NCBI GenBank assembly: GCA_964596605.1 | Contig: CAZQUJ010000001.1 | Coordinates: forward strand, 1 to 51,100 | DNA: 51,100 nt | Reading direction: 5' to 3' | Source: an uncultured Candidatus Saccharibacteria bacterium | GTDB taxonomy: Bacteria > Patescibacteriota > Minisyncoccia > Phycocordibacterales > UBA9973 | Part shown: positions 11,443-48,900 of the stretch, one piece after another | How the letters are laid out: each line of letters starts with the position of its first letter | Numbering within the stretch: the stretch's first letter is position 1 | Made by a program: the position numbers and the translations under genes | Notes under the pieces: model-generated | Seen by the model: the letters and a program-made list of their open reading frames with translations, nothing else | Database searches by the model: none | Told to the model about the DNA's origin: nothing

Positions 11443-14028
11443 ATGAAAAAATACGAACATTTAAAAATAGAAAAAAGATGGCAAAAAAAATGGCAAACCT
11501 CTGGTGTATATAAAACATCAGCTAATTACAAAAAACCTAAAATGTATGTCCTGGATATGTTTCCATATCCTTCAGGAGTAGGTCTTCACGTTGGGCACCC
11601 ACGAGGATATATAGGAAGTGATGTTTATGCTAGAAAAAAAATGATGGAAGGATATAATGTTCTTCACCCTATGGGTTATGATGCTTTTGGATTGCCAGCT
11701 GAGCAATATGCATTGGAACATAAAATACATCCAAGAAAAGCAGTTGAAGAAAATGTTAAAACTTTTGAAAGACAACTTTCTATGATAGGTCTTTCATATG
11801 ATTGGGATAGAAAAGTAAACACAACAGATCCAAAGTATTATAAATGGACTCAATGGATTTTCTTGCAGATATATAATTCTTGGTTTGATAATTCTAAACA
11901 AAAGGCAAGACCAATAAAAGAACTAGAAGAAATATTTGAGAAAAAGGGGAATGAAGAAGTGGATGCTACTTGTAGTCCCGATGTTAAAATATTTAAATCA
12001 TCAGAATGGAAAGAATTTTCTAAAAAAGAAAAGCATGATATTTTAATGTCATATCGTTTAGCATATGAAGGTTATAGTGAAGTAAACTGGTGTCCGGAGC
12101 TTGGAACCGTTTTGGCTAATGATGAAATACTTAATGATGATAAAGGAAATTTGGTTTCAGAAAGAGGTAGTCATCCCGTAGAAAAGAAAAAAATGCGTCA
12201 GTGGTTTATGAGAATTACAGCTTATGCTGATAGGCTTTTAGAAAATCTTGAAGATTTGGATTGGAGTGATCATATAAAAGAAATTCAGAAGAACTGGATT
12301 GGTCGTTCTGAAGGAGCAGAAATTATTTTTAAAATTAAAAACAATAAAGAACAGATAAAAGTCTTTACCACACGAGCAGATACTTTATTTGGTGTGACTT
12401 ATGTTGTCTTAGCTCCGGAACATGATTTAGTTCAAAAATTAAAAAAAGATATCTCAAACTGGGGGGAAGTAGAAAAGTATATTAATAGTTTAAAAAATAA
12501 ATCGGAAGAAGATAGGGTTTCAACCGAAAAGGAAAAAACAGGAGTAGAACTTAAGGGAATCAAAGCTATTAATCCAGCAAACAGCGAAGAAGTTTCTGTT
12601 TGGATTGCTGATTATGTTTTAGCTACTTATGGTACAGGTATGGTTATGGCGGTACCAGCTCATGATGAAAGAGACTGGGCTTTTGCCAAGAAATATAATT
12701 TACCAATAAAAGTGGTGATAGAATATCCAAAAGATTATCCTACAGATAAACCATATACAGAATATGGTATTGTAATTAACTCAGAAGGGATTCCATCGGC
12801 TAATGGTCTTTTGAGCCAAGATGCCATGCTTGAAATTACAGAAGAATTGGAATACAGAGGACAAGCCAAATCAGTTGTTAAATACCGAATGAGAGATGCT
12901 ATTTTTGCTCGTCAGAGATACTGGGGGGAACCAATTCCTATAAAGCACAATCCTGATGGAACTATTACTCCACTTCAAGAAAAAGATTTACCACTAGAAT
13001 TACCTAAGGTTAAATCATATACAATTACAGGCACAGGGGAGTCACCACTGGCTTCTGTCAAAAGTTGGACAAAGGAAGGATATGAGACAAACACCATGCC
13101 TGGCTGGGCAGGATCTTCTTGGTATTTTATACGATACATGGATCCTAAGAATAGTAAAGAGTTTGCTAAAAGAGAATCAATAGATTATTGGAACCAAGTA
13201 GATATGTATGTTGGAGGACAAGAACATGCAACAGGGCATTTACTATATTCTCGTTTTTGGACAAATTTCTTGTATGATATTGGTAAATTACCCTTTGAGG
13301 AACCATTTAAGAAAATGAAGAATCAAGGAATGGTTATAGCTTCTGATGGACGAAGAATGAGTAAGAGGTGGGGAAATGTTGTTAACCCCGATGACATAGT
13401 TAAAACATATGGAGCTGATACATTGCGAATTTATGAAATGTTTATGGGTCCATTTGATCAAATGCTTCCTTGGTCTACCGAAAGCATAATTGGTTCTCGT
13501 CGTTTCTTGGAAAAAGTTTGGAGAGTTGGACAAATAGTTTTAGAATCTAAACCTAAAAAAACTAATCCTGAAACAGAAATTGTTTTGCATAAAACAATTA
13601 AGAAAGTTACAGAGGATATTGAAAGTTTTTCTTTCAACACGGCTATTTCATCTATGATGATTTTGGTTAATGTTTTAGAAAAAACAGACAATATAAAGGT
13701 TTCAGACTTTCTAAAATTCTTACAAATACTTTGTCCTTTTGCTCCACACATAACAGAAGAAATATCTTCTTTACTAGGACAAAAGAAGAGTCTAATCAGA
13801 AATGCTTGGCCAACTTGGGATGAAGATAAAATTGAAGATGAAAAAATTAAAATAGCTGTTCAGGTAAATGGAAAGGTTCGTTCTCTAATTGAGATAGACA
13901 AAGAAGCCAAAGAGGAAGAAGTTAAAAAGATAGCCCTAGGTGATTCAAATGTCAAAAAATGGTTGGAAAATAAGGACATAAAAAGATTTATTTATGTTCC
14001 TAGTCGGGTTGTTAATATCGTGGTATAG
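11443..14028 (+). CDS. leuS: leucyl-tRNA synthetase
   Basis: MKKYEHLKIEKRWQKKWQ N-terminus, PYPSGVGLHVGHPRGY (HIGH region), KMSKRWGN (KMSKS), and CP1 editing and anticodon-binding regions. The track ORF start at 11302 is an upstream extension that overlaps the opposite-strand gene. Confidence 0.95.
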   Translation: MKKYEHLKIEKRWQKKWQTSGVYKTSANYKKPKMYVLDMFPYPSGVGLHVGHPRGYIGSDVYARKKMMEGYNVLHPMGYDAFGLPAEQYALEHKIHPRKAVEENVKTFERQLSMIGLSYDWDRKVNTTDPKYYKWTQWIFLQIYNSWFDNSKQKARPIKELEEIFEKKGNEEVDATCSPDVKIFKSSEWKEFSKKEKHDILMSYRLAYEGYSEVNWCPELGTVLANDEILNDDKGNLVSERGSHPVEKKKMRQWFMRITAYADRLLENLEDLDWSDHIKEIQKNWIGRSEGAEIIFKIKNNKEQIKVFTTRADTLFGVTYVVLAPEHDLVQKLKKDISNWGEVEKYINSLKNKSEEDRVSTEKEKTGVELKGIKAINPANSEEVSVWIADYVLATYGTGMVMAVPAHDERDWAFAKKYNLPIKVVIEYPKDYPTDKPYTEYGIVINSEGIPSANGLLSQDAMLEITEELEYRGQAKSVVKYRMRDAIFARQRYWGEPIPIKHNPDGTITPLQEKDLPLELPKVKSYTITGTGESPLASVKSWTKEGYETNTMPGWAGSSWYFIRYMDPKNSKEFAKRESIDYWNQVDMYVGGQEHATGHLLYSRFWTNFLYDIGKLPFEEPFKKMKNQGMVIASDGRRMSKRWGNVVNPDDIVKTYGADTLRIYEMFMGPFDQMLPWSTESIIGSRRFLEKVWRVGQIVLESKPKKTNPETEIVLHKTIKKVTEDIESFSFNTAISSMMILVNVLEKTDNIKVSDFLKFLQILCPFAPHITEEISSLLGQKKSLIRNAWPTWDEDKIEDEKIKIAVQVNGKVRSLIEIDKEAKEEEVKKIALGDSNVKKWLENKDIKRFIYVPSRVVNIVV

Positions 14029-20664: not shown

Positions 20665-20901
20665 ATGAAAAAAGTTACAATATATTCTAGCCCAACATGT
20701 CATTTTTGCCACATGGTTAAAGATTTCTTTATAGCTAACGGTGTTGTTTTTGAAGATTTTGATGTTTCAACAGACTTAGAAAAAAGAAAAGAAATGGTAG
20801 AAAAGAGTGGGCAAATGGGTGTTCCAGTGACGATAATAGATAATGAATTAGTTGTTGGTTTTGACAAAGAAAAACTAAGTAAATTACTTGATATTAAATA
20901 A
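20665..20901 (+). CDS. glutaredoxin-like protein (thioredoxin fold, NrdH/YruB-like)
   Basis: 78 aa with a CHFC redox motif near the N-terminus (IYSSPTCHFCHMVKDF) and a GVPVTIIDNELVVGFD C-terminal motif. Confidence 0.85.
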   Translation: MKKVTIYSSPTCHFCHMVKDFFIANGVVFEDFDVSTDLEKRKEMVEKSGQMGVPVTIIDNELVVGFDKEKLSKLLDIK

Positions 20902-20956: not shown

Positions 20957-21031
20957 GCCCCCGTAGTTCAATGGATAGAACAGTTCCGTCCTAAGGAATA
21001 GATGTAGGTTCGATTCCCGCCGGGGGCACCA
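20957..21031 (+). tRNA. tRNA-Arg (anticodon CCT), CCA encoded
   Basis: Acceptor stem gcccccg/cgggggc, D-arm gttcaatggatagaac, anticodon loop gtcctaa, T-loop ttcgatt, ending acca. Confidence 0.88.
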
Positions 21032-21040
21032 ATTTAACTT

Positions 21041-21102
21041 TCGAATATTTTGAACGAAACGTCTGTTCACGCCTTGGCCGCGCTCGACAGGCTCGCGCGG
21101 GG
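21041..21102. repeat. inverted repeat, left copy (IR-L)
   Basis: tcgaatattttgaacgaaacgtctgttcacgccttggccgcgctcgacaggctcgcgcgggg. By hand alignment it matches the reverse complement of 27571-27634: a shared TCGAA end, a 2-nt indel, then 46/55 identities. Confidence 0.85.
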
Positions 21103-21108
21103 AAAAAC

Positions 21109-21189
21109 CAAAAATTCCCTATCCTTTTTATTTGTGCTCCCAACACCCTCGGCCACAAGGTGGAAAGTCTGAAAGGAAGGGAATTTTTG
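21109..21189 (+). other. long-range stem-loop (12-bp perfect stem, 57-nt loop) followed by a T-rich tract
   Basis: caaaaattccct (21109-21120) is the exact reverse complement of agggaatttttg (21178-21189). tttttgtt follows downstream. It lies between IR-L and the XRE gene. Confidence 0.4.
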
Positions 21190-21286
21190 TTTTTGTTGCT
21201 ACTGCTTCATATTTACATTTGGATTATTTTTTGCTACCATAGTAATAAGTTAACCAACCTGAATAGTCTTTACTTTAATTATAGCA

Positions 21287-21508
21287 ATGTATTACAATGC
21301 CTGCTGGCAAAAATTAACAATTGCCAATAATATAAAGAAATACCAACAAAAGCTCGGCATTTCTCAAAACCGTCTCTCCAAAATTGCCGATGTTGCTTAT
21401 AATACGATTATTAAAATTGAGTTAGGCGGTAGTCAAAACCCGACTATTGATACCTTGACCAAAATAGCTAAAGCGCTCGATGTTAGTGTAGATGAGTTAA
21501 TAAGATAA
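21287..21508 (+). CDS. XRE-family helix-turn-helix transcriptional regulator
   Basis: 73 aa. IKKYQQKLGISQNRLSKIADVAYNTIIKIELGGSQNPTIDTLTKIAKALDVSVDELI is a canonical HTH_3 (Cro/C1) domain. Confidence 0.85.
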   Translation: MYYNACWQKLTIANNIKKYQQKLGISQNRLSKIADVAYNTIIKIELGGSQNPTIDTLTKIAKALDVSVDELIR

Positions 21509-21513
21509 ATTTT

Positions 21514-22587
21514 ATGAATAAATCGAAAAAAATAAAAGTTGCACTTGTTGGCATAGGAAATTGCGCAAGTTCTCTTGTCCAAGGTGTCTCATTTTACTCA
21601 CAAGCAGAAAATGTAACGATTGGGTTAATGCACCCAAATTTTGCCGGATTTAATGTGTCTGATATTGAGTTTGTCGCCGCGTTTGATGTTGATAAAAGAA
21701 AAGTGGGGAAAGATCTCGCAGAAGCAATATTTCAAAAACCTAATTGCACAACGAAGTTTCAAGAAGTTGGGCTATTAAATATTAAGGTATTAAAGGGACA
21801 TGTTTTAGATGGTGTAGCACCTCATATGCAAGAATATTTTATTGTCGATGATAAACAGGAACCAGTTGATGTTGCGCAAGAATTACACAAATGCGGTGCA
21901 GAAATGCTCATCTCTTATTTACCAGTGGGTAGTGCTGAAGCGTCAAGATTTTATGCTAACGAAGCAATAAGGGCGGGTGTTGGATTTATTAACGCCATTC
22001 CTGAATTTATTTGCTCTAAGTCAGAATGGATTGCCAAATTTAAAGAAAAAGGGATACCCTGTGCTGGCGATGATATAAAATCTCAATTTGGTGCGACTAT
22101 CCTGCATAGAACTGTGACAAGATTAATTGAAGATCGTGGGCATAAGATTGATAATACATACCAATTAAATATCGGTGGAAATACAGATTTTTTAAACATG
22201 AAAGATGAAAATCGACTCAGTTCAAAGAGATTATCAAAAACGAATGCGGTAACCTCAATACTTGGAGAAAAAGAGTTTGGAGTTCGAATCGGTCCAAGCG
22301 ATTATATACCCTATCTTAATGACAATAAAATTTGCTATATAAATGTTAAGGGTAAGCAGTTTGGAGGATTACCTTTTGAATTAGATATTAAATTGAGTGT
22401 TGAAGACAGCCCGAATAGTGCTGGGGTTATGGTAGATGTTATCAGGGCCATGAAGGTTGCTATTGATCGTGGAGTTTCAGGAAATTTAGGGGCAATAAGC
22501 GCATATTATTTTAAATCACCAGAAGTTCAATATAGAGACGATATTGCCAGGACGATTGTTGAAGATTTCATCAATTTTAAGCAATAA
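21514..22587 (+). CDS. ino1: myo-inositol-1-phosphate synthase (inositol-3-phosphate synthase, bacterial/archaeal short type)
   Basis: The N-terminal Rossmann motif KVALVGIGNCASSLVQGVSFY is characteristic of short MIPS enzymes. Also present: GDDIKSQFGATILHR, NIGGNTDFLN, and SKRLSKTNAV (the conserved SK...SK region). Confidence 0.8.
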   Translation: MNKSKKIKVALVGIGNCASSLVQGVSFYSQAENVTIGLMHPNFAGFNVSDIEFVAAFDVDKRKVGKDLAEAIFQKPNCTTKFQEVGLLNIKVLKGHVLDGVAPHMQEYFIVDDKQEPVDVAQELHKCGAEMLISYLPVGSAEASRFYANEAIRAGVGFINAIPEFICSKSEWIAKFKEKGIPCAGDDIKSQFGATILHRTVTRLIEDRGHKIDNTYQLNIGGNTDFLNMKDENRLSSKRLSKTNAVTSILGEKEFGVRIGPSDYIPYLNDNKICYINVKGKQFGGLPFELDIKLSVEDSPNSAGVMVDVIRAMKVAIDRGVSGNLGAISAYYFKSPEVQYRDDIARTIVEDFINFKQ

Positions 22588-22593
22588 AGTTTT

Positions 22594-23814
22594 ATGATTT
22601 ACGTACACAAAAAAGAATTATCAGAGTCAGAGTATGAGTTCGTAGAACGTAAGGGCATTGGACATCCAGACACCTTATCTGATGCTCTTGCCGAGTTTTT
22701 ATCAGTTAAATACTCAAACTATACTCTGAAAAATTTTGGTGCAGTATTACATCATAACTTTGATAAAGTTGGGCTACTCGGTGGTGCTTCATTTGTAAAA
22801 TTTGGCGAGGGATACCTAACAAAACCGATAAGAGTATTATTAAATGGTCGCGCTTCAACAAAATTTGGAGATAAAAATATCCCAGTTGAGGACTTGTTAA
22901 AATCTTGGGCAGGCGAGTTTCTCTTAAACAAATTTAGAAATCTAATAAAAGAAAGTGACTTAGAGATCCATTACAATTTAAGTACACAAAGCAGTCCTGG
23001 TAAAACCGAAGAATTTAAGTCAACGAATACCCCCCGAAAATTTTGGTTTGAACCAAGAAATTTTGACGATCTTCCGGAAATTAAAAAACTATTTTCTAAT
23101 GATACTTCCTTGGGTGTGGGTTATGCTCCTTATTCTAAGTTAGAGAAACTTGTTTTAGATATTGAAGGAGTCCTAAACTCTGATAGTTTCAAAAAGGATC
23201 ATCCGTGGATAGGATCTGATATTAAAATAATGGGTACGAGGCACGGCCATCAGTTTGGTGTGACTTTATGTATACCACAAATAGCCAACTATGTGCATTC
23301 AGTTGAGGAATATAGACAAAATTTAGAGCAGGCCAAACAATTTATTTTCAAGATTTCTCAAAATATTGGAATAAATGGCCTCGAACTATCGTGTAATACT
23401 CGTGATAATTTAGAAACAGGGGAACTTTATCTTACAGCGATCGGTTCATCGATAGAAAGTGGTGACGAAGGTTTGGTTGGCAGAGGAAATAGAGTAAACG
23501 GGATAATTTCGCCCACGAGACTTATGAGTATGGAAGGGGCTTGTGGTAAAAATCCTGTTTATCATATTGGTAAGATTTACTATGTAGCCGCCAACGAGAT
23601 TAGTAAAAAAATTTTTGAAAAGTTTGGAATTGCGAATGAAGTCTCTTTAATTAGCCAAAGTGGTCGAGATTTACTTGATCCATGGAAGACATATGTTACT
23701 TTATACAATTCAAATATAGGTGAAGAACAGGTTCGGATTTTTGTTGAAAATGAACTAAGGAATATTCCGGAAATAACTAAAAACCTATTAGAGGATAAAT
23801 TAAGGCTATTTTAA
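22594..23814 (+). CDS. archaeal-type S-adenosylmethionine synthetase (MAT, AdoMet_Synthase family)
   Basis: FVERKGIGHPDTLSDALAE...FGAVLHHNFDKVGLLGGAS...VLLNGRAS closely parallels the archaeal MAT N-terminus (VERKG.GHPD..CD....FG..LHHN.D.V.LVGG....LL.GRA). It does not resemble bacterial MetK. Confidence 0.8.
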   Translation: MIYVHKKELSESEYEFVERKGIGHPDTLSDALAEFLSVKYSNYTLKNFGAVLHHNFDKVGLLGGASFVKFGEGYLTKPIRVLLNGRASTKFGDKNIPVEDLLKSWAGEFLLNKFRNLIKESDLEIHYNLSTQSSPGKTEEFKSTNTPRKFWFEPRNFDDLPEIKKLFSNDTSLGVGYAPYSKLEKLVLDIEGVLNSDSFKKDHPWIGSDIKIMGTRHGHQFGVTLCIPQIANYVHSVEEYRQNLEQAKQFIFKISQNIGINGLELSCNTRDNLETGELYLTAIGSSIESGDEGLVGRGNRVNGIISPTRLMSMEGACGKNPVYHIGKIYYVAANEISKKIFEKFGIANEVSLISQSGRDLLDPWKTYVTLYNSNIGEEQVRIFVENELRNIPEITKNLLEDKLRLF

Positions 23815-23818
23815 TGTT

Positions 23819-24943
23819 ATGGAAAAGATGCTTAATCAAGAAAAAGAAATAACAAGACTGGAATATTTAACTACCCATGTTGGACTAATTAAACAACTTG
23901 ATGGAAAATATTTGCTTGCTGAAAGCGTGTATTCAGAAGACATTCAAAATGAAAGTTCGTTAGAACACATACCCTTAATTAAGTCAGATGAAGTGATTAG
24001 GCCAGAGGGAGATACTACCATGCTTACTTCAGCTGGTATCCAGCATCTTGAAACTCTTGAACGTGACAAAATTAATTTAGAAAGTGAGAAGTTTAAAATT
24101 GCACAACCAGTTGTTCGTAGTCAGTTTATGGATAAAATCAAAGAAGGTTATTCAACGGCTTTTATAGATGAATCTGTCGTTCAACTCGGAGTATCTGATG
24201 AAGTTTTTTTTGGTATGTGTAAGCAAATGATCATTGATTCATTGAACCATGACGAAGATATACAAAAATATTATCTAACAATTGATACCCAAGATGATCG
24301 TTGGGGTCAAAAAAAGTTCACCAAATTAGTCATCACTTTATATTATGGCGGGAACGAAGTATCAGAAGGTGTGTATATAGATAAATTTCCTAAAGTTAAT
24401 GGGCAGACTGTTTCAGTTGCCGAGATAACCCACGGTGCTGAAAGATATAATTGGATTCACAGAGAAAATAAAGACCAACCATATTTTATTGATTTTGAAG
24501 AATTCTACCATTCTGATAATAAAGATAATGTTGCAAAAATTATAGATCCCATCAGAACAGCTACATTGATGATCATGCAAGGGGTTGTTCCATCCCATAA
24601 GGATCCTGGGTTTAGATTAAGACAGCTGATTAAAAGATTTGTGGAAAGAAACACCGAGACTTCTTTTTCTGAAGATAGACTTTTGGATTTATCATATGAT
24701 TTTTGGATAAGAAATAGTGTTGAAGGAATTGTTGATAAAATTGGGGTTCGTGAATCGTTAAAAAAAGAAATGATGCGTGCTCAAAATGTATATATTGTTG
24801 GCCACATAGAAAGAGATATGAACAAAAAAATTAAGGTTGATGTGAATTTAAGTACAGATGAATTTATTAAAAGAATCTATTCTTCATCTCCAGAAGAGAT
24901 TATTGAGATAGTAAAAAGTATTAATTTAAAAAAATATGAGTAA
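23819..24943 (+). CDS. stand-alone, diverged alanyl-tRNA-synthetase catalytic-core paralogue (class IIc aaRS-like; candidate amino-acid ligase)
   Basis: 374 aa. Three stretches align with AlaRS landmarks. GDTTMLTSAGIQHLE matches NDPTLLFTNAGMNQFK. IAQPVVRSQ matches TSQRCVRAG. IIDPIRTATLMIMQGVVPSHKDPGFRLRQLIKRFVER matches [37 protein letters not shown]. No tRNA-recognition, editing or C-Ala domains are present. Confidence 0.6.
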   Translation: MEKMLNQEKEITRLEYLTTHVGLIKQLDGKYLLAESVYSEDIQNESSLEHIPLIKSDEVIRPEGDTTMLTSAGIQHLETLERDKINLESEKFKIAQPVVRSQFMDKIKEGYSTAFIDESVVQLGVSDEVFFGMCKQMIIDSLNHDEDIQKYYLTIDTQDDRWGQKKFTKLVITLYYGGNEVSEGVYIDKFPKVNGQTVSVAEITHGAERYNWIHRENKDQPYFIDFEEFYHSDNKDNVAKIIDPIRTATLMIMQGVVPSHKDPGFRLRQLIKRFVERNTETSFSEDRLLDLSYDFWIRNSVEGIVDKIGVRESLKKEMMRAQNVYIVGHIERDMNKKIKVDVNLSTDEFIKRIYSSSPEEIIEIVKSINLKKYE

Positions 24944-25613
24944 GCTTTTTTTAAGTGGCGGTGGTGATGTAGATATGTCGTATTCGTTTGACAGCCTATT
25001 CTTTGATTCATTGCCACAGGCTGCGAATATACTTTATATTCCCGTTGCTATGGCGACCACTATGACTAAGACAGAGGTAGCTTTCGATTGGTTTTCAAAA
25101 TTGATTTCACGCCATTCAAGCAACAACAGATACCTAGATTTTACGATATGGAATATCGGGGATTCTTTGCCTATTTTGCATAATTATGATGCTGTATATG
25201 TTGGTGGTGGAAATACATATAGACTCTTGATGGCATTAGAAAAATCAGGAATGTTCGATGCTTTGAAAAAATATATCAGAAATGGTGGTATTTACTATGG
25301 TGGAAGTGCTGGTGCTGTGATTGTTGGTAAAAACTTACGAACTGTAGAGGAAGAAAATTTAGAAAATTATTCAAAGCATGATGGTATGAATTTAGTTGAA
25401 GATCTCTCTATATTTCCGCATTTTTCTGATAGTGAAGAGCAAAAAAATACCATTAGGAACATTTGTGGCAAATATTCCTTAAAGGTAGTCGCACTTCCCG
25501 AAAATTCTGGTCTTATTCTCGATACACAAAGTATAGGTGTTCACGGTAATATATATTTATATGAACAAGAGAAAGAAACTATTTTTTATACATCTGGGCA
25601 AATTATCAAGTAG
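24936..25613 (+). CDS. peptidase S51 family protein (dipeptidase E/cyanophycinase-like, class I glutamine-amidotransferase-like fold)
   Basis: YVGGGNTYRLLMALEKSGMFDALKKYIRNGGIYYGGSAGAVIVG contains the GGGNT and GxSAG nucleophile motifs of the S51 family. It overlaps the previous gene by 8 nt. Confidence 0.7.
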   Translation: MSKLFLSGGGDVDMSYSFDSLFFDSLPQAANILYIPVAMATTMTKTEVAFDWFSKLISRHSSNNRYLDFTIWNIGDSLPILHNYDAVYVGGGNTYRLLMALEKSGMFDALKKYIRNGGIYYGGSAGAVIVGKNLRTVEEENLENYSKHDGMNLVEDLSIFPHFSDSEEQKNTIRNICGKYSLKVVALPENSGLILDTQSIGVHGNIYLYEQEKETIFYTSGQIIK

Positions 25614-26763
25614 CTCCGGTCATACAGCGCGATTACGCTATGAATTAAAGGACATTAGCAAGATAGCAGAAGTTTCGATTCTGTCTTTAGCAAATGAGTC
25701 TGATCAATCTTTCCCTGGTAAATATCCGAATATACATTTCTATGTTTTACCAATTAAGTTCAATGGCTGGAAAGTTGTTAATTTGAGTCGTGTTGTAGAA
25801 CAGATAGATAGAATAATCAGCTTTTGTAAGCCAGATATTGTTATTTTGTGCATTGAAATTTGGGATTTAATTTTAGAATTGCATAAAAAAATATCTGACA
25901 AAGTAGCATTTTGTGCCATATGTCACGCAATGCCATTCTTAGGTTCACCCTTAAATCCAACAAAATCCTTTGAATCAGATGTAAGGAATTTTACTAATAA
26001 GCAAATACCAAAATACAGAAAAAACTATATTATCAAACATTACAAAGAATTTTCGAAGGTTATAAATTCTGGTTTATTAATTGCAAATAATGCATCTGTT
26101 GCTTTCTATTTTAAAAATTATTTCCCGAGATCATTGTTTTGGAAACAAGTGCCTCATGTTACGGTTGATCCACTAAGAATGCCCAAAACTTTAGATATTA
26201 GCTATGATTTTTGTTATATGGCGAGAATGGAGAAAGGAAAGGGGGTGGAATATCTGCAAGATTTGTTTGGTAAAATTTCAACCAAACTGGGTAGGAAAAT
26301 TAGGGTGGCACTCATGGGCAGGACAGATGATAAGTACTCACAAGAAAAACTCAGGAGCCTGCTTGAAAGTAAAAGTGAAGCTTACTCAATTCGGTTTTTT
26401 GGCTGGGCGGATGATAGAACTAAAGCTAAAGTATTAAGTAAAAGCGGTTGTTTTATTTACCCATCAATTTACGATAATTTTCCGACAGTAGTTAATGAAG
26501 CCATGGCTCATGGTTTGCCTGTGGCAATGTGGAATAATCTTTTTTATAGAGTTAATTATTCTGGCATAAAGTCTGTATCTGTCGCTATTCCTTTTAGTGT
26601 TGAACATTTAGCTTCGGTGGCTGTGAATTTATTAAAAAGAAAGTCTACTCTAAGTCATCATTCTATAGAATATATAAAGAAAAGTGGTGGCTCCAGATCA
26701 GTTGCTAAAGATGATCTCATGCTGTTTGATGAGATAATTAAACATAATGAAAGAAATAAATAG
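25561..26763 (+). CDS. family 4 (GT-B) glycosyltransferase
   Basis: The N-terminus is LFFIHLGKLSSSSGHTARLRYE. The C-terminal donor-binding region is GCFIYPSIYDNFPTVVNEAMAHGLPVA (E-x7-E type). I take ATG 25561 as the start (the track gives 25537). Either start overlaps the 3' end of the S51 gene, by 53 nt from 25561. Confidence 0.75.
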   Translation: MNKRKKLFFIHLGKLSSSSGHTARLRYELKDISKIAEVSILSLANESDQSFPGKYPNIHFYVLPIKFNGWKVVNLSRVVEQIDRIISFCKPDIVILCIEIWDLILELHKKISDKVAFCAICHAMPFLGSPLNPTKSFESDVRNFTNKQIPKYRKNYIIKHYKEFSKVINSGLLIANNASVAFYFKNYFPRSLFWKQVPHVTVDPLRMPKTLDISYDFCYMARMEKGKGVEYLQDLFGKISTKLGRKIRVALMGRTDDKYSQEKLRSLLESKSEAYSIRFFGWADDRTKAKVLSKSGCFIYPSIYDNFPTVVNEAMAHGLPVAMWNNLFYRVNYSGIKSVSVAIPFSVEHLASVAVNLLKRKSTLSHHSIEYIKKSGGSRSVAKDDLMLFDEIIKHNERNK

Positions 26764-28129
26764 TAACTTTGAAAAATTTTTTCCGAAAGAGAATGTTATT
26801 GTAATGCTCCACGCTCATGCTGATGATGAGTCATTTTTGTCTGCCGGTACTATAAATGAATTTATAGTGCGTGGTTATAATATTTTACTAATTTACTTAG
26901 CTGCAGGTCTTGTTGAAAATGAACAAGAGACACTTCTCAGGCAAAAAGAGCTTTCTATGGCATTAGAAACACTAGGTGCACATAATGTAAAGTTTCTTAA
27001 ATATTGCGAACCAAAATACAAAGGGAGTGGCGCCCCTCTTTATTTGCAATCAATACGAGAAGTATCAAACGAAATAATTAAATTTCTTAATAAAGAAAGA
27101 ATAAAAAAATATATACTTTTTTCATACGATAAAAATGGTGGTTATGGGAATAAGGATCATTTAGTAGTACATAAGGTAGGAAGATATCTGTTTAAAAAAT
27201 CATCGGTGATTAGTTCACTATTTGAGGTAACTATTTCAAGGGATATGTATACAGATTGGTTTTCAAAAGAATCGGGTAGGGTTTCTGAAACTTATTTACC
27301 AAAACTAAGTTATTGGTCTACAGAATTTGGACTAACAGACGAAGAAATCAATTACATATACGTACTTAATTCTAAACAAATTTGGTTAAAGAAAAAAGCT
27401 CTTATTAAACACGTCTCGCAAATAAAGAATACAGAATTTCCTCTGTCTCTTACTAATACCGATTTTATAAAATTGTTTGGTAGAGAATATCTTGCGTACG
27501 TTAATAGATCGATTCTGCAAGATATCGTAAATTTCACCGAAGCCACCACAGGACAAATACAAAGCAAGTGCCCCACGCGAGCTTGTCGAGCACTGGCGAG
27601 ACGTGGTCAGACGTTTCGTTCAAAATGCGTTCGAGCAGAGTCGTATAATTCTACAAATATGAATGAAAAAGATTTTAATCTAAGTATTTTTGATGGAAAG
27701 GGATGGTCAAAAATATCTAAATCTCTGTTTGAAATAGAAAAAGAGTGTTTTTTAGATTTGTCTTTTTCTTGGAAAGATTTTTGTAATTATTTTTCTAATC
27801 CTAAAATAATTGCAGTAATATTAAGATATAAAAATGACATTATTGGATTCTCCTTTGGTTTTCCTTCTGGTGATGATTCTTTTTTTATTTACGATACTGC
27901 TATAAAAAAAGAATTTCAGGGCAGGGGATTAGTTTCTCTAATTATGAATTTCTTGGAAAAGAAACTAAAGGAGGATGGCTACAAATATATAGAAAGGGAA
28001 GCTGATGTTGATAATGGGTATGCTGATAAAATTCGCAGACATTATAAAGGAAGAATAATAGAGGAAGGAATTCCTCATAATTCTATTTATTCAAAAGGAA
28101 AACAGGTATTTTTTAAGATAGAGATTTAG
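26747..28129 (+). CDS. PIG-L/LmbE-family N-acetylglucosaminyl deacetylase (aa 1-~270), whose frame reads through IR-R into the downstream GNAT gene
   Basis: VIVMLHAHADDESFLSAGT (the AHPDDE-type zinc motif) and YGNKDHLVVHK (the HxDH-type motif). Residues 275-296 (CPTRACRALARRGQTFRSKCVR) are encoded by IR-R. There is no stop codon before the GNAT domain, so the 460-aa ORF is either a real fusion or a read-through artefact. Confidence 0.7.
   Translation: MKEINSNFEKFFPKENVIVMLHAHADDESFLSAGTINEFIVRGYNILLIYLAAGLVENEQETLLRQKELSMALETLGAHNVKFLKYCEPKYKGSGAPLYLQSIREVSNEIIKFLNKERIKKYILFSYDKNGGYGNKDHLVVHKVGRYLFKKSSVISSLFEVTISRDMYTDWFSKESGRVSETYLPKLSYWSTEFGLTDEEINYIYVLNSKQIWLKKKALIKHVSQIKNTEFPLSLTNTDFIKLFGREYLAYVNRSILQDIVNFTEATTGQIQSKCPTRACRALARRGQTFRSKCVRAESYNSTNMNEKDFNLSIFDGKGWSKISKSLFEIEKECFLDLSFSWKDFCNYFSNPKIIAVILRYKNDIIGFSFGFPSGDDSFFIYDTAIKKEFQGRGLVSLIMNFLEKKLKEDGYKYIEREADVDNGYADKIRRHYKGRIIEEGIPHNSIYSKGKQVFFKIEI
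27571..27634. repeat. inverted repeat, right copy (IR-R)
   Basis: ccccacgcgagcttgtcgagcactggcgagacgtggtcagacgtttcgttcaaaatgcgttcga, which is the reverse complement of IR-L with about 84% identity over the ungapped 55-nt core. Confidence 0.85.
27659..28129 (+). CDS. GNAT-family N-acetyltransferase (possible independent cistron from an internal ATG)
   Basis: The C-terminal 156 aa of the long ORF carry an acetyl-CoA motif-A-like segment, IKKEFQGRGLVSLIMNFLEKKLKEDGYKYI (Q/RxxGxG/A). TATAAT at 27644-27649 lies 9 nt upstream of ATG 27659. The composition drops back to flank-like AT-richness. Confidence 0.6.
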   Translation: MNEKDFNLSIFDGKGWSKISKSLFEIEKECFLDLSFSWKDFCNYFSNPKIIAVILRYKNDIIGFSFGFPSGDDSFFIYDTAIKKEFQGRGLVSLIMNFLEKKLKEDGYKYIEREADVDNGYADKIRRHYKGRIIEEGIPHNSIYSKGKQVFFKIEI

Positions 28130-45933: not shown

Positions 45934-48900
45934 AATATATAAAAAAATTTGAAGAAATAGGCAAGAAAGATGTAGACATTGCTGGAGGCAAGGGAGCTTC
46001 GTTAGGGGAGATGTTGAATTCTGGAATTCCTGTTCCTAATGGTTTTGTTATCCTTTCTTCAACTTTTGATTATTTTATTAAAAAAACAGATTTAATTCAG
46101 GAAATTGATTCTATTTTAGACAATGTTGATCGTAATGTCATACATGAAGTAGAAAAAGCTTCAGAAAAAATTCGAGAATTAATAATTTCCCGAAAAATTC
46201 CAGAGGATATTAAGATTGAGATAGAAAAGAATTTTAAAGAATTAGGATCTTCTTTTGTGGCTGTCAGATCATCAGCTACTGCTGAAGATGGTTCTCAAAA
46301 TGCTTGGGCTGGACAGCTAGAAAGCTATTTAAATACTAATAAAAATGATTTATTAGAAAATGTAAAGAAATGCTGGGCTTCTTTGTTTACTCCTAGAGCC
46401 ATTTTCTATCGTTTTGAAAAAGGGTTAGACAAAACAAAAATTTCTGTGGCTGTTGTAATTCAACAAATGGTTCAATCGGAAATTTCGGGAATTGCTTTTT
46501 CTGTTCATCCTGTGACTGAAGACAAAAACCAGGTGATAATAGAGGCAGGTTTTGGGTTGGGGGAGGCTATTGTGTCTGGATCGGTTACTCCAGATTCATA
46601 TGTTTTGGAAAAAGAACCAAGGGGGATTCTGGATATAAATATTAATGAGCAAAATAGAGCTTTGTATAGAGGAAAAGATGGGGGAGTAGAATGGAAAAAA
46701 TTAACTGAGGAAGGGTCAAAGAAACAAGTTTTGTCTAATTCTCAAATTTTAGAATTGGCAGAGTTGGTGATAAAAATAGAGAATCATTACGGTTTTCCTT
46801 GTGATATAGAATGGGCTTATGAAGATAATAAGTTTTATATAGTTCAATCAAGACCAATTACGACACTAAAAAGAGAGGTTAATGATGTGGGTACAGAAAC
46901 TATTAATTTAGTAAAAGAACACAGTAGAGAATATTCGATTGCACAAATAAATTCATATTGTGAAATAATAAATAAAATTAAAAAGGAAACAGGGTGTCAA
47001 ATAGAAAATGAATTATTTCTCTATAATCCAAAAATTAAATTAGTTTCAATTTACCATCAACCCCAAGAACTAAAAAATCTTTTTAAGGCTGTTGGGACTT
47101 TAGCAATGGATAAATTAGTTTTAAAAAAGATCATATCAGATTTTGAGCAATCTCTATCTGATATAAAACCATATCTGGAGAATAAAAAAGTTGTAAGAAA
47201 TATTGAAGAGTTTAATTTGCTATATGATTTATTTTTTAGATTTTATTTAGGGATAGCCTATGTTTGGGTGTTACCACTTCTTGAATACTTACCAGAAAAA
47301 GTAAAGGAAGTATCTTTAAAACTAAGAGAAAAGACTGAAAAATATTCTTCTAGAAGAGATCAAGTTTTAATAAATAATTTAAAAATTATTTATCCCGAGG
47401 TGGAGGATTTGGTAAAATATTTGTCTATAGATGAAATTAGAAGGGGGAAGATAACCGAAGAATTAATTTCTAAGTTAAAAGAAAGAGCAGATGGTTTTAT
47501 ATATTATCGAGATAATATCTATCAAGGTAAATTATATGAAGAATTTTTTGAAAATAATAAAATAAAATTAGATGATCAAGTATTAGATAAAGATATTAAT
47601 AAAATAACAGGTTCTGTTGGCTTTAGAGGGGTGGCAAAAGGGTTTGTTAGATTGATTTTTACCGAAAAAGATTTAAATAATTTTAAAGAGGGAGAAATTC
47701 TTGTTTCTCCTATGACTAGACCAGAATTTCTTTCTGTTATGCAGAAAGCTTTAGCTTTTGTCACTGACGAGGGTGGAATAACTTGTCATGCCGCAATAAT
47801 AGCAAGAGAAATGAAAAAACCTTGTATCATAAGTACAAAAATTGCTACTCAAGTTTTAAAAGATGGAGATTTGGTTGAAGTAGATGCAGACAATGGGGTA
47901 GTGAGGATATTGGAAAGGAGTGAAAAGTTAGTTGGAGAAAACGATAAGGCCAATAAAAAATTTGAATTAGATCCAGATATTTGGTCTGATTCTTTTAATT
48001 GGAAATATGGGGCATATCCGTTTTTTACCTCGGTATATACAAAACTTAACACAGAAGAAAAAAATAAATATGAAACAGATTGGAAATATTTTTTAAACTA
48101 TTTTAAGGATGGTCAACTTAATGCTTATCTACCAAAGAAAGAAGTGATTGATAATGGTCGTTTGATTATCAGTGAGCTTTTAAATGGCAATGAAAATTTT
48201 TTAAATGTATTTAATGATTATCACGATAAAATTAATCAATCCTTGTGTATTTGTCAAAAATACTTGAAAAGTAATTCCAATAAATTTGAAGAGATCTGGT
48301 TTCTAGTTCAAGACTCACTTTCAAATGCTGCTAAAATTTTGTTTAATTTTGATTACGGTCTAGACGATTATTTTAAAGAATTACAAAAGGATGATATTAA
48401 ACTTTTTGAAATTATTAATTCCAACATAGCAGAAGAAAAGGAATCATTTATTAGTGAAGCATCAAAAGAGCTAATAAAACTTGCAAAAGAAAATCCAAAT
48501 GATTTTGATATGGTTTATGAGACTTTCTTAATGAAATATGGATGGTTTCAAAATTCATATAAGGGGGTTTTTAATATAACGAAAGATTGGTTGCTTGATT
48601 TTTATAATAAAACAAAAGATCTTAATCCCGTACAAAAAACAAAAATAAAAATTAAAATTGATAGCAAGTATAAATTATTTATAAAAGTTATTAATAAAGC
48701 CATTTCTTTTAGAGACGACAAAAAGAAATTATTACTTTTCTCTGTAGGGATTATGAACAAATGGCTAGAAGAGTTTTCTGATAAGTACAAGCTAAACAAA
48801 AAAGATTTATTGTGGCTTTCGGTTGACGAAATTTTGGAACTCTCTAGCAGCGTTAATCTTCTTGAAGAGAAAGTAAATACCTATAAAAGTTCTAATAGTA

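Follow-up and report, generated by a model that had tools for sequence, protein, structure and literature searches.

The window analysed here is a stretch of 51,100 nt from contig CAZQUJ010000001.1 of an uncultured Candidatus Saccharibacteria bacterium (assembly GCA_964596605.1). Beside its tRNA-Arg(CCT) gene lies a cassette of seven co-oriented genes, spaced by 4-6-nt gaps or overlapping, that is bounded by a left and a right GC-rich inverted repeat (IR-L and IR-R; Table 1). The first of these genes encodes an XRE-type helix-turn-helix (HTH) protein and the remaining six form a biosynthetic-type operon. Pfam detects no recombinase or transposase domain in any of the seven, and a GNAT acetyltransferase gene of the host follows the right repeat. 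The cassette is an insertion at the 3' end of the tRNA gene, and probably represents a non-autonomous, recombinase-less member of a family of cassettes that are moved by a large serine recombinase (LSR) among bacteria of the candidate phyla radiation (CPR, or Patescibacteria).

Table 1. Features of the tRNA-Arg(CCT) cassette locus, in coordinates of the window.
Feature	Position	Strand	Basis
tRNA-Arg(CCT), integration target	20957..21031	+	ARAGORN and Rfam; empty site; junctions of relatives at the same tRNA position
Crossover dinucleotide AC (discriminator A73 + C74), left	21028-21029	+	Empty site
Inserted element	21030..27654	+	Filled (L003/window) versus empty (L144, L140-L143) sites; composition; identity to L004
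Left terminal arm, including IR-L (21041/21047-21102)	21030..21102	+	Repeat search, arm alignment
Module B	21104..21194	+	17-nt inverted repeat, 94% complementary, 57-nt C-rich core
Conserved stretch 5' of HTH gene (likely promoter/operator, predicted)	21195..21286	+	~82% nucleotide identity to L004, in a region running into the HTH gene
XRE-family HTH gene, first of the seven genes	21287..21508	+	Pfam HTH_3, 3e-13
Cargo operon	21514..27517	+	Pfam, NCBIfam; same gene set in L004, L005/L006, L009, L010, L011
Inositol-3-phosphate synthase	21514-22587	+	Pfam/NCBIfam
Archaeal-type methionine adenosyltransferase (AdoMet synthetase)	22594-23814	+	Pfam/NCBIfam
374-aa protein, weak/marginal match to the alanyl-tRNA synthetase (AlaRS) catalytic core	23819-24943	+	
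PepE-like peptidase S51	24936-25613	+	Pfam/NCBIfam
GT4 glycosyltransferase	25561-26763	+	Pfam/NCBIfam
PIG-L/MshB-like deacetylase	26747-27517	+	Pfam/NCBIfam
Module D remnant (conserved non-coding, 3' of PIG-L in relatives)	27518..27570	+	Alignment to L004, L010
Right terminal arm: IR-R (27571-27634) plus outermost 20 nt	27571..27654	-	Repeat search; empty site sets the end
Crossover AC, right	27653-27654		Empty site
Host GNAT acetyltransferase gene, outside the element	27659..28129	+	Stand-alone homologues in empty-site contigs

An earlier note, made from the sequence alone, had placed the cassette at 21032-27640 between imperfect GC-rich inverted repeats of ~62 nt with a shared TCGAA terminus, a 2-nt indel and an 18-nt perfect run, and had described its seven genes as tightly packed and co-oriented; each of these observations is borne out by the present analysis, apart from a small correction to the borders. 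A repeat search of the window returned arms of 56 nt at 21047-21102 and 27571-27626 that are 84% complementary, and both repeats have a G+C content of 58-60%. The sequence TCGAA is common to both arms and lies just outside the 2-nt indel, while the 18-mer TTTTGAACGAAACGTCTG has exactly two occurrences in the window, one on each strand, against a chance expectation of 0.09 matches even when up to three mismatches are allowed. IR-L begins 10 nt beyond the end of the tRNA, as had been noted. The shift in base composition that had been read from spot counts also holds in a formal test. G+C in the insert is 0.344 compared with 0.318 in the remainder (z = 2.5), exceeding all other windows of the same size, and the tetranucleotide L1 distance of the insert is 0.229 compared with a maximum of 0.145 elsewhere in the window (z = 8.5). 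This shift is real, modest in G+C and strong in tetranucleotide usage, and it supports a foreign origin for the cassette.

The earlier note had proposed that an empty site, with tRNA-Arg running straight into the GNAT gene, might be found in relatives, and such a site exists (L144), on a contig of the same assembly as the filled site (L003). In L144 the tRNA-Arg(CCT) sequence ...GGGGGCAC runs directly into AAATATGAATGAAAAAG, the start of the GNAT gene. If the crossover is marked by an oblique, this junction reads ...GGGGGCAC/AAATATG, or equally ...GGGGGCAC/AAATATGAATG; the left junction of the window reads ...GGGGGCAC/CAATTTAACTTTCGAATA, with the insert beginning CAATTT, and its right junction reads GTCGTATAATTCTAC/AAATATGAATG, with the insert ending TTCTAC. 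The only sequence common to both junctions is AC, the tRNA discriminator plus C74, and comparison of the window with L144 finds no target-site duplication beyond these 2 nt, in agreement with the earlier note. The inserted unit defined in this way is 21030-27654, or 6625 bp, with a border uncertainty of 2 nt caused by the presence of AC at both junctions. The cassette is thus the discrete unit that had been proposed, with true borders that reach 11 nt (left) and 20 nt (right) past the repeats as first described. The predicted circle junction of the element would read ...GTCGTATAATTCTAC/CAATTTAACTTTCG... Stand-alone GNAT homologues of 156 aa in the empty-site contigs are 88% (L144) and 71% (L140-L143) identical to the GNAT protein of the window locus, and L140-L143 share the same synteny without the cassette: DivIC - tRNA-Gly - glutaredoxin - tRNA-Arg(CCT) - GNAT - small open reading frame (ORF) - tRNA-Phe - HSP20 - PrsW. 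The 6.6-kb block bounded by the repeats has genuinely been inserted where the tRNA-Arg gene ends, and the comparison supports its acquisition as a discrete, horizontally transferred cassette.

Relatives of the operon, reached through homologues of its PIG-L protein, place the same genes in unrelated neighbourhoods on other CPR contigs, whose hosts are named as Parcubacteria, Uhrbacteria and Saccharibacteria. The closest comparison is a Parcubacteria contig (L004) that shares 85% nucleotide identity with the window cassette over 6381 nt and has different flanks. Its arms are inverted, ~265 nt long and 90-92% identical, and the left one is preceded, at the contig end, by the LSR-proximal module 'o' described below. 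In another relative, L010, the arms are 39 nt long. The Uhrbacteria copy (L009, 4043-4200) is truncated, with its left part missing and its right arm intact; there, the 3' end of a tRNA-Arg(TCG) gene continues directly into mid-gene sequence of the inositol-phosphate synthase at AAGAAGTTTCAAGA, a sequence resembling an LSR half-site. Two contigs from Hainich groundwater (L005, 6250-6460; L006, 1-220) carry the same operon apparently without the HTH gene and without GC-rich arms; on either side, a directly repeated 3' segment of a histidine-kinase gene (HATPase_c fragment) seems to be present. Finally, L004 also contains a second large serine recombinase (12235-13965; 22% identity to the family LSR), which adjoins tRNA-His beside phage-like genes 5 kb downstream of the cassette and probably belongs to a separate integrated element. 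The fragment at the start of the L004 contig was considered as a flipped LSR gene and set aside, as it is the usual inverted pseudo-copy 'o'.

Homologues of the window repeats are far more widespread than the operon they enclose. Across loci, the arms are homologous to each other and form a mosaic of a terminal stretch (GCGGTGATG/GGTGCAGAAA-TATTAACCTTTGCGCGAACC), a module A of several short GC-rich hairpins and a palindromic module B. Metagenome contigs were scanned with a 20-nt pattern from the terminal stretch, TATTARCYTTTGCGCGAACC, which matches at least 120 of them and gives no match in a viral contig collection; the window operon itself is on none of the matched metagenome contigs listed. 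The arms of the window are a short variant of this mosaic. An internal deletion common to both window arms was considered and dropped, since the window simply carries another arm variant, of the CATTTTGAACGAAA type, that is also present in L034, L039 and L109. Module B, kept on the left side only in the window copy, is retained across the family (L004, L009, L010, L011 and many metagenome loci). Its 55-60-nt core is G-rich on the outward-to-inward strand in L004 (228-362) and C-rich in L009 (9931-10075), L010 and the window (21104-21194), which indicates that the palindrome-bounded core has flipped between close relatives.

In 123 arm copies homology ends at one sharp boundary, and 111 arms with enough flanking sequence fall into 77 unrelated flank types, many of which are terminator hairpins or tRNA 3' ends. 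The check for further repeat copies and other cargos that had been proposed for this cassette therefore turns up homologues in at least 77 genomic contexts; together with the precise empty site, these independent contexts of the same terminus argue against a recombination scar, one of three origins that the earlier note had offered. Of the arm copies, 41 have a contig end no more than 400 nt away on their inner side, which is what a repeat that interrupts assembly would produce. Inverted arm pairs on a single contig enclose 2.4-6.8 kb of differing cargo (L039, L049, L104, L118, L064/L066, L145, L147, L148). Cargos situated between the arms or behind them include a methyltransferase with SMODS and SLATT (L039), a pyrophosphatase with GFA and DUF7689 (L049), PLDc_N with TMEM43 (L118), type III (L023, L071) and type IIG (L108) restriction-modification, an Eco57I-type methylase (L104), dCMP deaminase with GrpB (L145) and an M78 peptidase with DUF4411 (L148), and the family also carries a toxin-antitoxin-like pair. 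A homologue of the window-type XRE-HTH gene is found ~260-350 nt (in one case 479 nt) inward of the motif in 15 loci, longer HTH-matching ORFs start inside the arm in two more, and an HTH homologue lies beside the LSR-proximal arm in L145, L147 and L148. In the family, XRE-HTH is the backbone gene next to the arm; the hidden Markov model for HTH was too insensitive to count such genes next to LSR-proximal arms.

Some loci consist of two inverted half-sites without cargo, over ~65-115 nt. One is ~110 nt long (L054, 388-500), and two ~65-nt forms (L032, 1865-1993; L121, 4355-4483) directly follow tRNA-Arg(TCT). From their sequence these may be derivatives akin to miniature inverted-repeat transposable elements (MITEs), or footprints.

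The structure of the arms invites a different reading, in which the GC-rich repeats are mainly functional RNA or DNA structures of the operon (terminators, insulators, 5'-3' pairing or a non-coding RNA) and coincide with the borders by chance. Such a role would suit the short GC-rich hairpins and the palindromic module B, in whose stems the variants differ by paired changes, as well as arms that are far longer than a recombinase half-site and a module D that is better conserved than coding sequence. However, only tRNAs reach the gathering score in Rfam, with nothing credible at E <= 10 around either repeat, and the repeats fold no more stably than shuffled sequence (z = -1.4 and -0.5), which also speaks against the conserved structured RNA that the earlier note had named as a possible refutation of its cassette. 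Furthermore, the same arms flank unrelated cargo, homology stops sharply at the insertion site, and the window and L010 retain only 39-62 nt of right arm. A long-range 5'-3' RNA pairing or an RNase III processing stem was dropped on the same grounds, as the same arms surround unrelated cargo and end at the insertion border. We therefore consider a purely structural explanation very unlikely, although the inner modules may have a second function, to which the long arms, the conserved modules B and D and the paired stem changes of module B could point. Module D shows 82-93% nucleotide identity among L004 (6674-6902), L010 (10775-10875) and L011 (7266-7522), compared with ~70% identity for the proteins. 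A stretch related to it, recognised by eye only, lies within the long arms of the unrelated element L118 (245-500).

When all ORFs of the arm loci were clustered to find recurrent neighbours, one family dominated beside the arms: an LSR of 510-550 aa with Resolvase, Recombinase and zinc-ribbon (Zn_ribbon_recom) domains, lying close to the arm on its outer side in ~15-20 loci among those selected by the motif. LSR-less cassettes are common, and only about one arm end in four has an LSR beside it. The LSR gene begins ~130-195 nt beyond the terminal stretch on the outside, and its transcription runs away from the HTH gene. Module 'o', the ~130-nt interval separating the LSR start from the arm, repeats the 3' coding end of the same LSR gene (o') in inverted orientation, and in every complete case (L064, L145, L147, L148) the gene is bracketed by an inverted repeat of 120-143 nt. 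All 13 LSR genes next to an arm share one orientation. The best NCBIfam matches of the family LSR are CcrB (77 bits, cut-off 900), XisF and CcrA (62 bits, cut-off 700); among solved structures, SPbeta YokA comes closest (E = 1.7e-11).

Selection through the arm motif was avoided by searching with the LSR protein instead. This returned at least 5277 protein clusters at E <= 1e-20; the best 120 show 69-96% identity, and those with named hosts belong to Patescibacteria classes or unclassified 'bacterium' metagenome-assembled genomes, with one labelled Deltaproteobacteria. Four loci were fetched by this route. The contig of L146 ends within 'o', leaving only the LSR and its tRNA junction visible, and all three that include the region upstream of the LSR (L145, L147, L148) share the layout distal arm - cargo - HTH - arm / o - LSR - o' / tRNA. 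In L147 (1000-8500), two complete cargo + LSR units stand in tandem, with both LSR 3' ends abutting the same ~20-nt fragment resembling a tRNA-Ser 3' end, which suggests repeated insertion into a regenerated target. L038 (463-3380) has an LSR gene and an arm followed by host-type genes, with no cargo; one of these genes is 71% nucleotide-identical to window 46256-46849.

The window itself is devoid of such a gene. A tblastn search with the family LSR finds no homologue anywhere in its 51 kb, and the cassette contains no recombinase, as first reported. Because the LSR gene is missing both between the repeats and from the window, this copy can be at most a non-autonomous derivative, and a non-autonomous element mobilised in trans is the best fit of the three origins first suggested. 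The accompanying judgement that this is not a standard tRNA-integrating island is not supported, as homologous arms are linked elsewhere to an LSR that joins the element to tRNA 3' ends.

The third suggested origin was an invertible segment, with the repeats serving as crossover sites for inversion of the operon in the manner of Gin, Cin and Pin and with phase variation of the cargo or the recombinase as the outcome. A recombinase gene directly outside a segment bounded by inverted repeats is what such a system would look like, full elements carry three sites of which the middle one is inverted, and the self-complementary GC dinucleotide found with tRNA-Ser targets would leave the sites without polarity; module B, too, occurs with its core in both orientations between close relatives. 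Nonetheless, the cargo has its own HTH gene and upstream region, which means that flipping should not switch its expression, and the cargo of seven LSR-proximal arms is oriented away from the arm, the three exceptions not being the same cargo flipped. No cargo was seen in both orientations, a weak test since it covers assembled contigs only, and 13 of 13 LSR genes keep one orientation. In the window the AC dinucleotide is polar, no LSR is present, and the empty site records an insertion, not an inversion, as the event that made the locus. Two candidate inversions were also set aside. L108/L025 and L049 could equally reflect the way assemblers treat inverted repeats, or arms reaching into the flank, and L034 and L038 do not represent one cargo in two orientations, as L038 has host genes right after the arm. 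Inversion as the explanation of the window repeats is, in our view, very unlikely.

The junctions connect the LSR gene with tRNA ends. The 3' end of the LSR gene abuts a tRNA 3' end, always directly after the discriminator + C, at tRNA-Ser genes with four anticodons and at Arg-GCG, Leu-CAG, Leu-TAG, Ile-TAT and Glu-CTC. Where 'o' ends and the arm begins, the two sequences mirror each other imperfectly as inverted copies, which makes the o/A boundary a palindromic, att-like site. The dinucleotide at the junction is GC with tRNA-Ser (G73) and AC/GT with Arg, Leu and Glu (A73). All three sites of L148 (tRNA junction, internal site, distal arm) have AC/GT, and the window has AC at both of its junctions, at the same tRNA position, in keeping with this discriminator rule. 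A 2-nt shared core without duplication is the outcome of serine recombinases such as the phiC31, Bxb1 and A118 integrases, and the lack of a target duplication in the window is as predicted by their chemistry, which makes a 2-nt staggered cut.

These junctions also bear on the possibility that the repeats are terminal inverted repeats of a mobile insertion cassette whose DDE transposase is encoded elsewhere, in the manner of MITEs. Passenger genes without a transposase enclosed by terminal inverted repeats, minimal two-end forms of 65-115 nt (L054, L032/L121) and the many insertion contexts would all be familiar from such elements. Against this, only the shared dinucleotide is found in place of a target-site duplication, the position of the junction within the tRNA is constant, and the dinucleotide changes along with the tRNA. 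When ~50 cargo and neighbour proteins were compared with Pfam, the sole match related to transposition was a weak, sub-threshold TnsA-like nuclease hit on a type III restriction enzyme, and the only gene recurrently linked to the arms is the serine recombinase. A transposase-driven origin therefore appears extremely improbable.

The ends of the window cassette are imperfect inverted half-sites homologous to those beside the LSR gene in autonomous members of the family. The right end matches A-type ends at 30 of 38 positions in L034 and 29 of 38 in L148, and from these alignments is best described as a diverged A-type terminal half-site. The left end matches the o' end of L023 at 20 of 26 positions and A-type ends at 19 of 22 (gapped); its outermost ~20 nt would represent a recombinase half-site that could belong to either of two types, LSR-3'-end-like (o') or shortened A-type.

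We propose the following mechanism. A full-length element reads, from the target outwards, tRNA 3' end, LSR gene with its 3' end at the junction, 'o' and a GC-rich arm (A + B), followed by the XRE-HTH gene, variable cargo, an inverted copy of the arm and the flank. Integration would proceed by conservative attP x attB recombination, with the tRNA discriminator + C74 as the central dinucleotide. The LSR is probably the responsible enzyme and the element ends its putative binding sites. The window copy, or an ancestral element, would have entered the 3' end of tRNA-Arg(CCT) at AC. It retains both terminal half-sites (the core of the inverted repeats), module B, the HTH gene and the cargo, and has no LSR. 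Two histories could have led to this state. Around 2 kb, comprising the LSR, 'o' and the start of the arm, may have been lost from a complete element by a deletion, perhaps with the TTTTGAA motifs of the two half-sites as its end points. Alternatively, the cassette may have been inserted as an LSR-less unit with the LSR supplied in trans. The window copy may remain mobilisable.

A rival reading is an integron-like arrangement of two distinct elements. The LSR gene with its ~130-nt inverted ends (o'/o) would then be a minimal autonomous unit residing at tRNA ends, and arm-bounded cassettes would be independent, circularisable units with palindromic joined ends that are captured at the outer site of the LSR unit; the window would hold a free-standing cassette beside a tRNA instead of a deletion derivative. 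The confinement of the LSR gene within its own 120-143-nt inverted repeat in every complete case agrees with this, as do the LSR-less cassettes with arm-type ends on both sides that lie beside tRNAs or terminators (L010, L059, L076 and the window), the combination of LSR and arm without cargo in L038, the tandem units of L147, and an arm start that resembles the reverse complement of the tRNA 3' half, as a target-like half-site would. Conversely, no LSR unit was seen with its outer site on plain host DNA, in a set where most loci were selected by the arm motif and where three of three informative LSR-fetched loci carry the arm. Multi-cassette arrays behind one LSR were not seen either, and the left end of the window aligns about equally well to the LSR-end and arm types. 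We regard this arrangement as possible but rather doubtful.

Several observations weigh against the LSR-moved cassette that we favour. The ambiguous type of the left terminus means that a deletion derivative and a cassette moved without its LSR are inseparable for the window. The GNAT protein differs by 12% between the filled and empty sites, which therefore represent different strains and not a polymorphism within one population. The dinucleotide rule has one noted exception, L056, where the tRNA junction has AC and the internal site GC. In L010 the nucleotides beside the two ends share no common dinucleotide. The arms also far exceed what a recombinase half-site needs, reaching 863 nt in L118, where they hold two A-type modules. 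In three cases the inverted repeat passes the usual boundary into the flank (L039, 390-606/3472-3688; L049, 1-375/2307-2681; L108, 23-394 with L025, 2041-2412), and the extended part differs per element, being a tRNA end + 26 nt, an 'o' module or a terminator-like flank. A simple att-site model does not explain such long or flank-extended arms, and several of the 100%-identical long repeats at contig ends may have been partly collapsed by assemblers.

No description of this family was found in the literature searched, where the nearest accounts are those of tycheposons and of the staphylococcal cassette chromosome (SCC). The features of SCC used here draw in part on PMC6222049. In the SCC of staphylococci and enterococci (SCCmec, SCC-like and ccr-less pseudo-SCC elements), as probably in the present family, an LSR places cargo-bearing cassettes at the 3' terminus of conserved housekeeping genes, and both show variable cargo, recombinase-less cassettes with the same ends, tandem or composite arrays and imperfect inverted-repeat ends. 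CcrB, XisF and CcrA are also the best NCBIfam matches of the family LSR. In contrast to SCC, the family targets many tRNA 3' ends and not rlmH (orfX), and has a single LSR in place of a CcrAB pair; at 77 bits against a cut-off of 900, this LSR scores too far below the Ccr cut-offs to be a Ccr. The arms of tens to hundreds of nt, the internal palindromic site beside the LSR gene, the XRE-HTH backbone and the CPR hosts are further differences. The serine-integrase prophages and islands (phiC31, Bxb1, A118, SPbeta SprA/YokA) share with the family the Resolvase + Recombinase + zinc-ribbon architecture, a 2-nt crossover without target duplication, a recombinase gene at one end of the element and imperfectly palindromic sites. 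Unlike them, the family elements are 2.4-7 kb long, lack phage genes and target at least eight tRNA species, with long inverted arms that duplicate the region upstream of the cargo and with many copies devoid of an integrase. By analogy, the window copy would correspond to a ccr-less SCC element, with the family itself falling within neither SCC nor the serine-integrase islands.

Tycheposons of Prochlorococcus resemble the family as cargo-carrying integrative elements that insert at tRNA genes and build variable islands; they have mostly tyrosine recombinases, one tRNA per integrase, often replication genes, and direct partial-tRNA repeats. A minority, 27 of 937 elements, carry a large serine recombinase (bioRxiv 10.1101/2020.12.28.424599). 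The family differs in having inverted arms, no replication genes and one LSR family that covers many tRNAs. As with mobile insertion cassettes and MITEs, the ends of an autonomous element enclose passengers or nothing, the enzyme is absent and mobilisation in trans is presumed, but those elements are substrates of DDE transposases and leave target-site duplications, whereas the family leaves none and is linked to a serine recombinase. Gin, Cin and Pin (phages Mu and P1, prophage e14) also place a serine recombinase gene just outside a segment bounded by inverted repeats. These are small invertases that act with an enhancer and Fis and switch tail-fibre genes, in contrast to an LSR with self-contained operons and no inversion detected in contigs. 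Integron cassettes, finally, have a single attC 3' of a mostly promoterless ORF and form arrays beside intI, a tyrosine recombinase, while the family has two inverted arms, its own HTH gene and upstream region, a serine recombinase and no cassette arrays among the loci seen.

The cargo of the window cassette resembles a mycothiol-type pathway. The INO1-like synthase scores 431 bits against the mycothiol_INO1 model, and is accompanied by a GT4 transferase, an MshB-like deacetylase and the AlaRS-core-like 374-aa protein, a possible ligase judging from its sequence, for which a search of PDB sequences gives marginal AlaRS-core matches only. An archaeal-type AdoMet synthetase and an S51 peptidase complete the set, and a glutaredoxin gene of the host (20665-20901) lies just upstream of the cassette locus. 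Insertion has also altered the host gene at the right border. The stop codon of PIG-L, TAA in L004 and L010, is CAA in the window, and the seventh ORF (26747-28129) consequently stays open across module D, IR-R and the GNAT leader and enters the host GNAT gene in frame. This yields a PIG-L-GNAT fusion of 460 aa, which arose through the insertion and the lost stop codon and is present in public databases (P0001); relatives have separate proteins of 257 and 156 aa.

For the window, these findings turn an odd pair of repeats into a dated insertion event with exact borders. More generally, CPR genomes are small and usually described as poor in mobile elements, and genetic tools for these bacteria are almost absent. 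The family described here is apparently large and undescribed; it looks abundant, and brings restriction-modification, SMODS + SLATT, toxin-antitoxin-like and biosynthetic cargo into tRNA-adjacent sites. Tentatively, and with some doubt, we suggest that it could constitute a broad-host-range cassette platform of the CPR, in which one conserved LSR reads a structural feature common to tRNA 3' ends and crosses over at the discriminator + C74. Its three-site layout (tRNA junction, internal palindromic site and distal arm) would capture, exchange and spread defence and biosynthetic cassettes between phyla, as a serine-recombinase analogue of the integron, and the window would contain one of these cassettes, residing there in the absence of its enzyme. 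If the proposed mechanism is true, it would explain the movement of accessory genes between CPR lineages. It would also provide a natural set of serine integrases whose sites are short and defined and whose choice of target is unusual, a tRNA 3' end with the dinucleotide set by the discriminator, which would be of interest for genome engineering and for the construction of CPR vectors.

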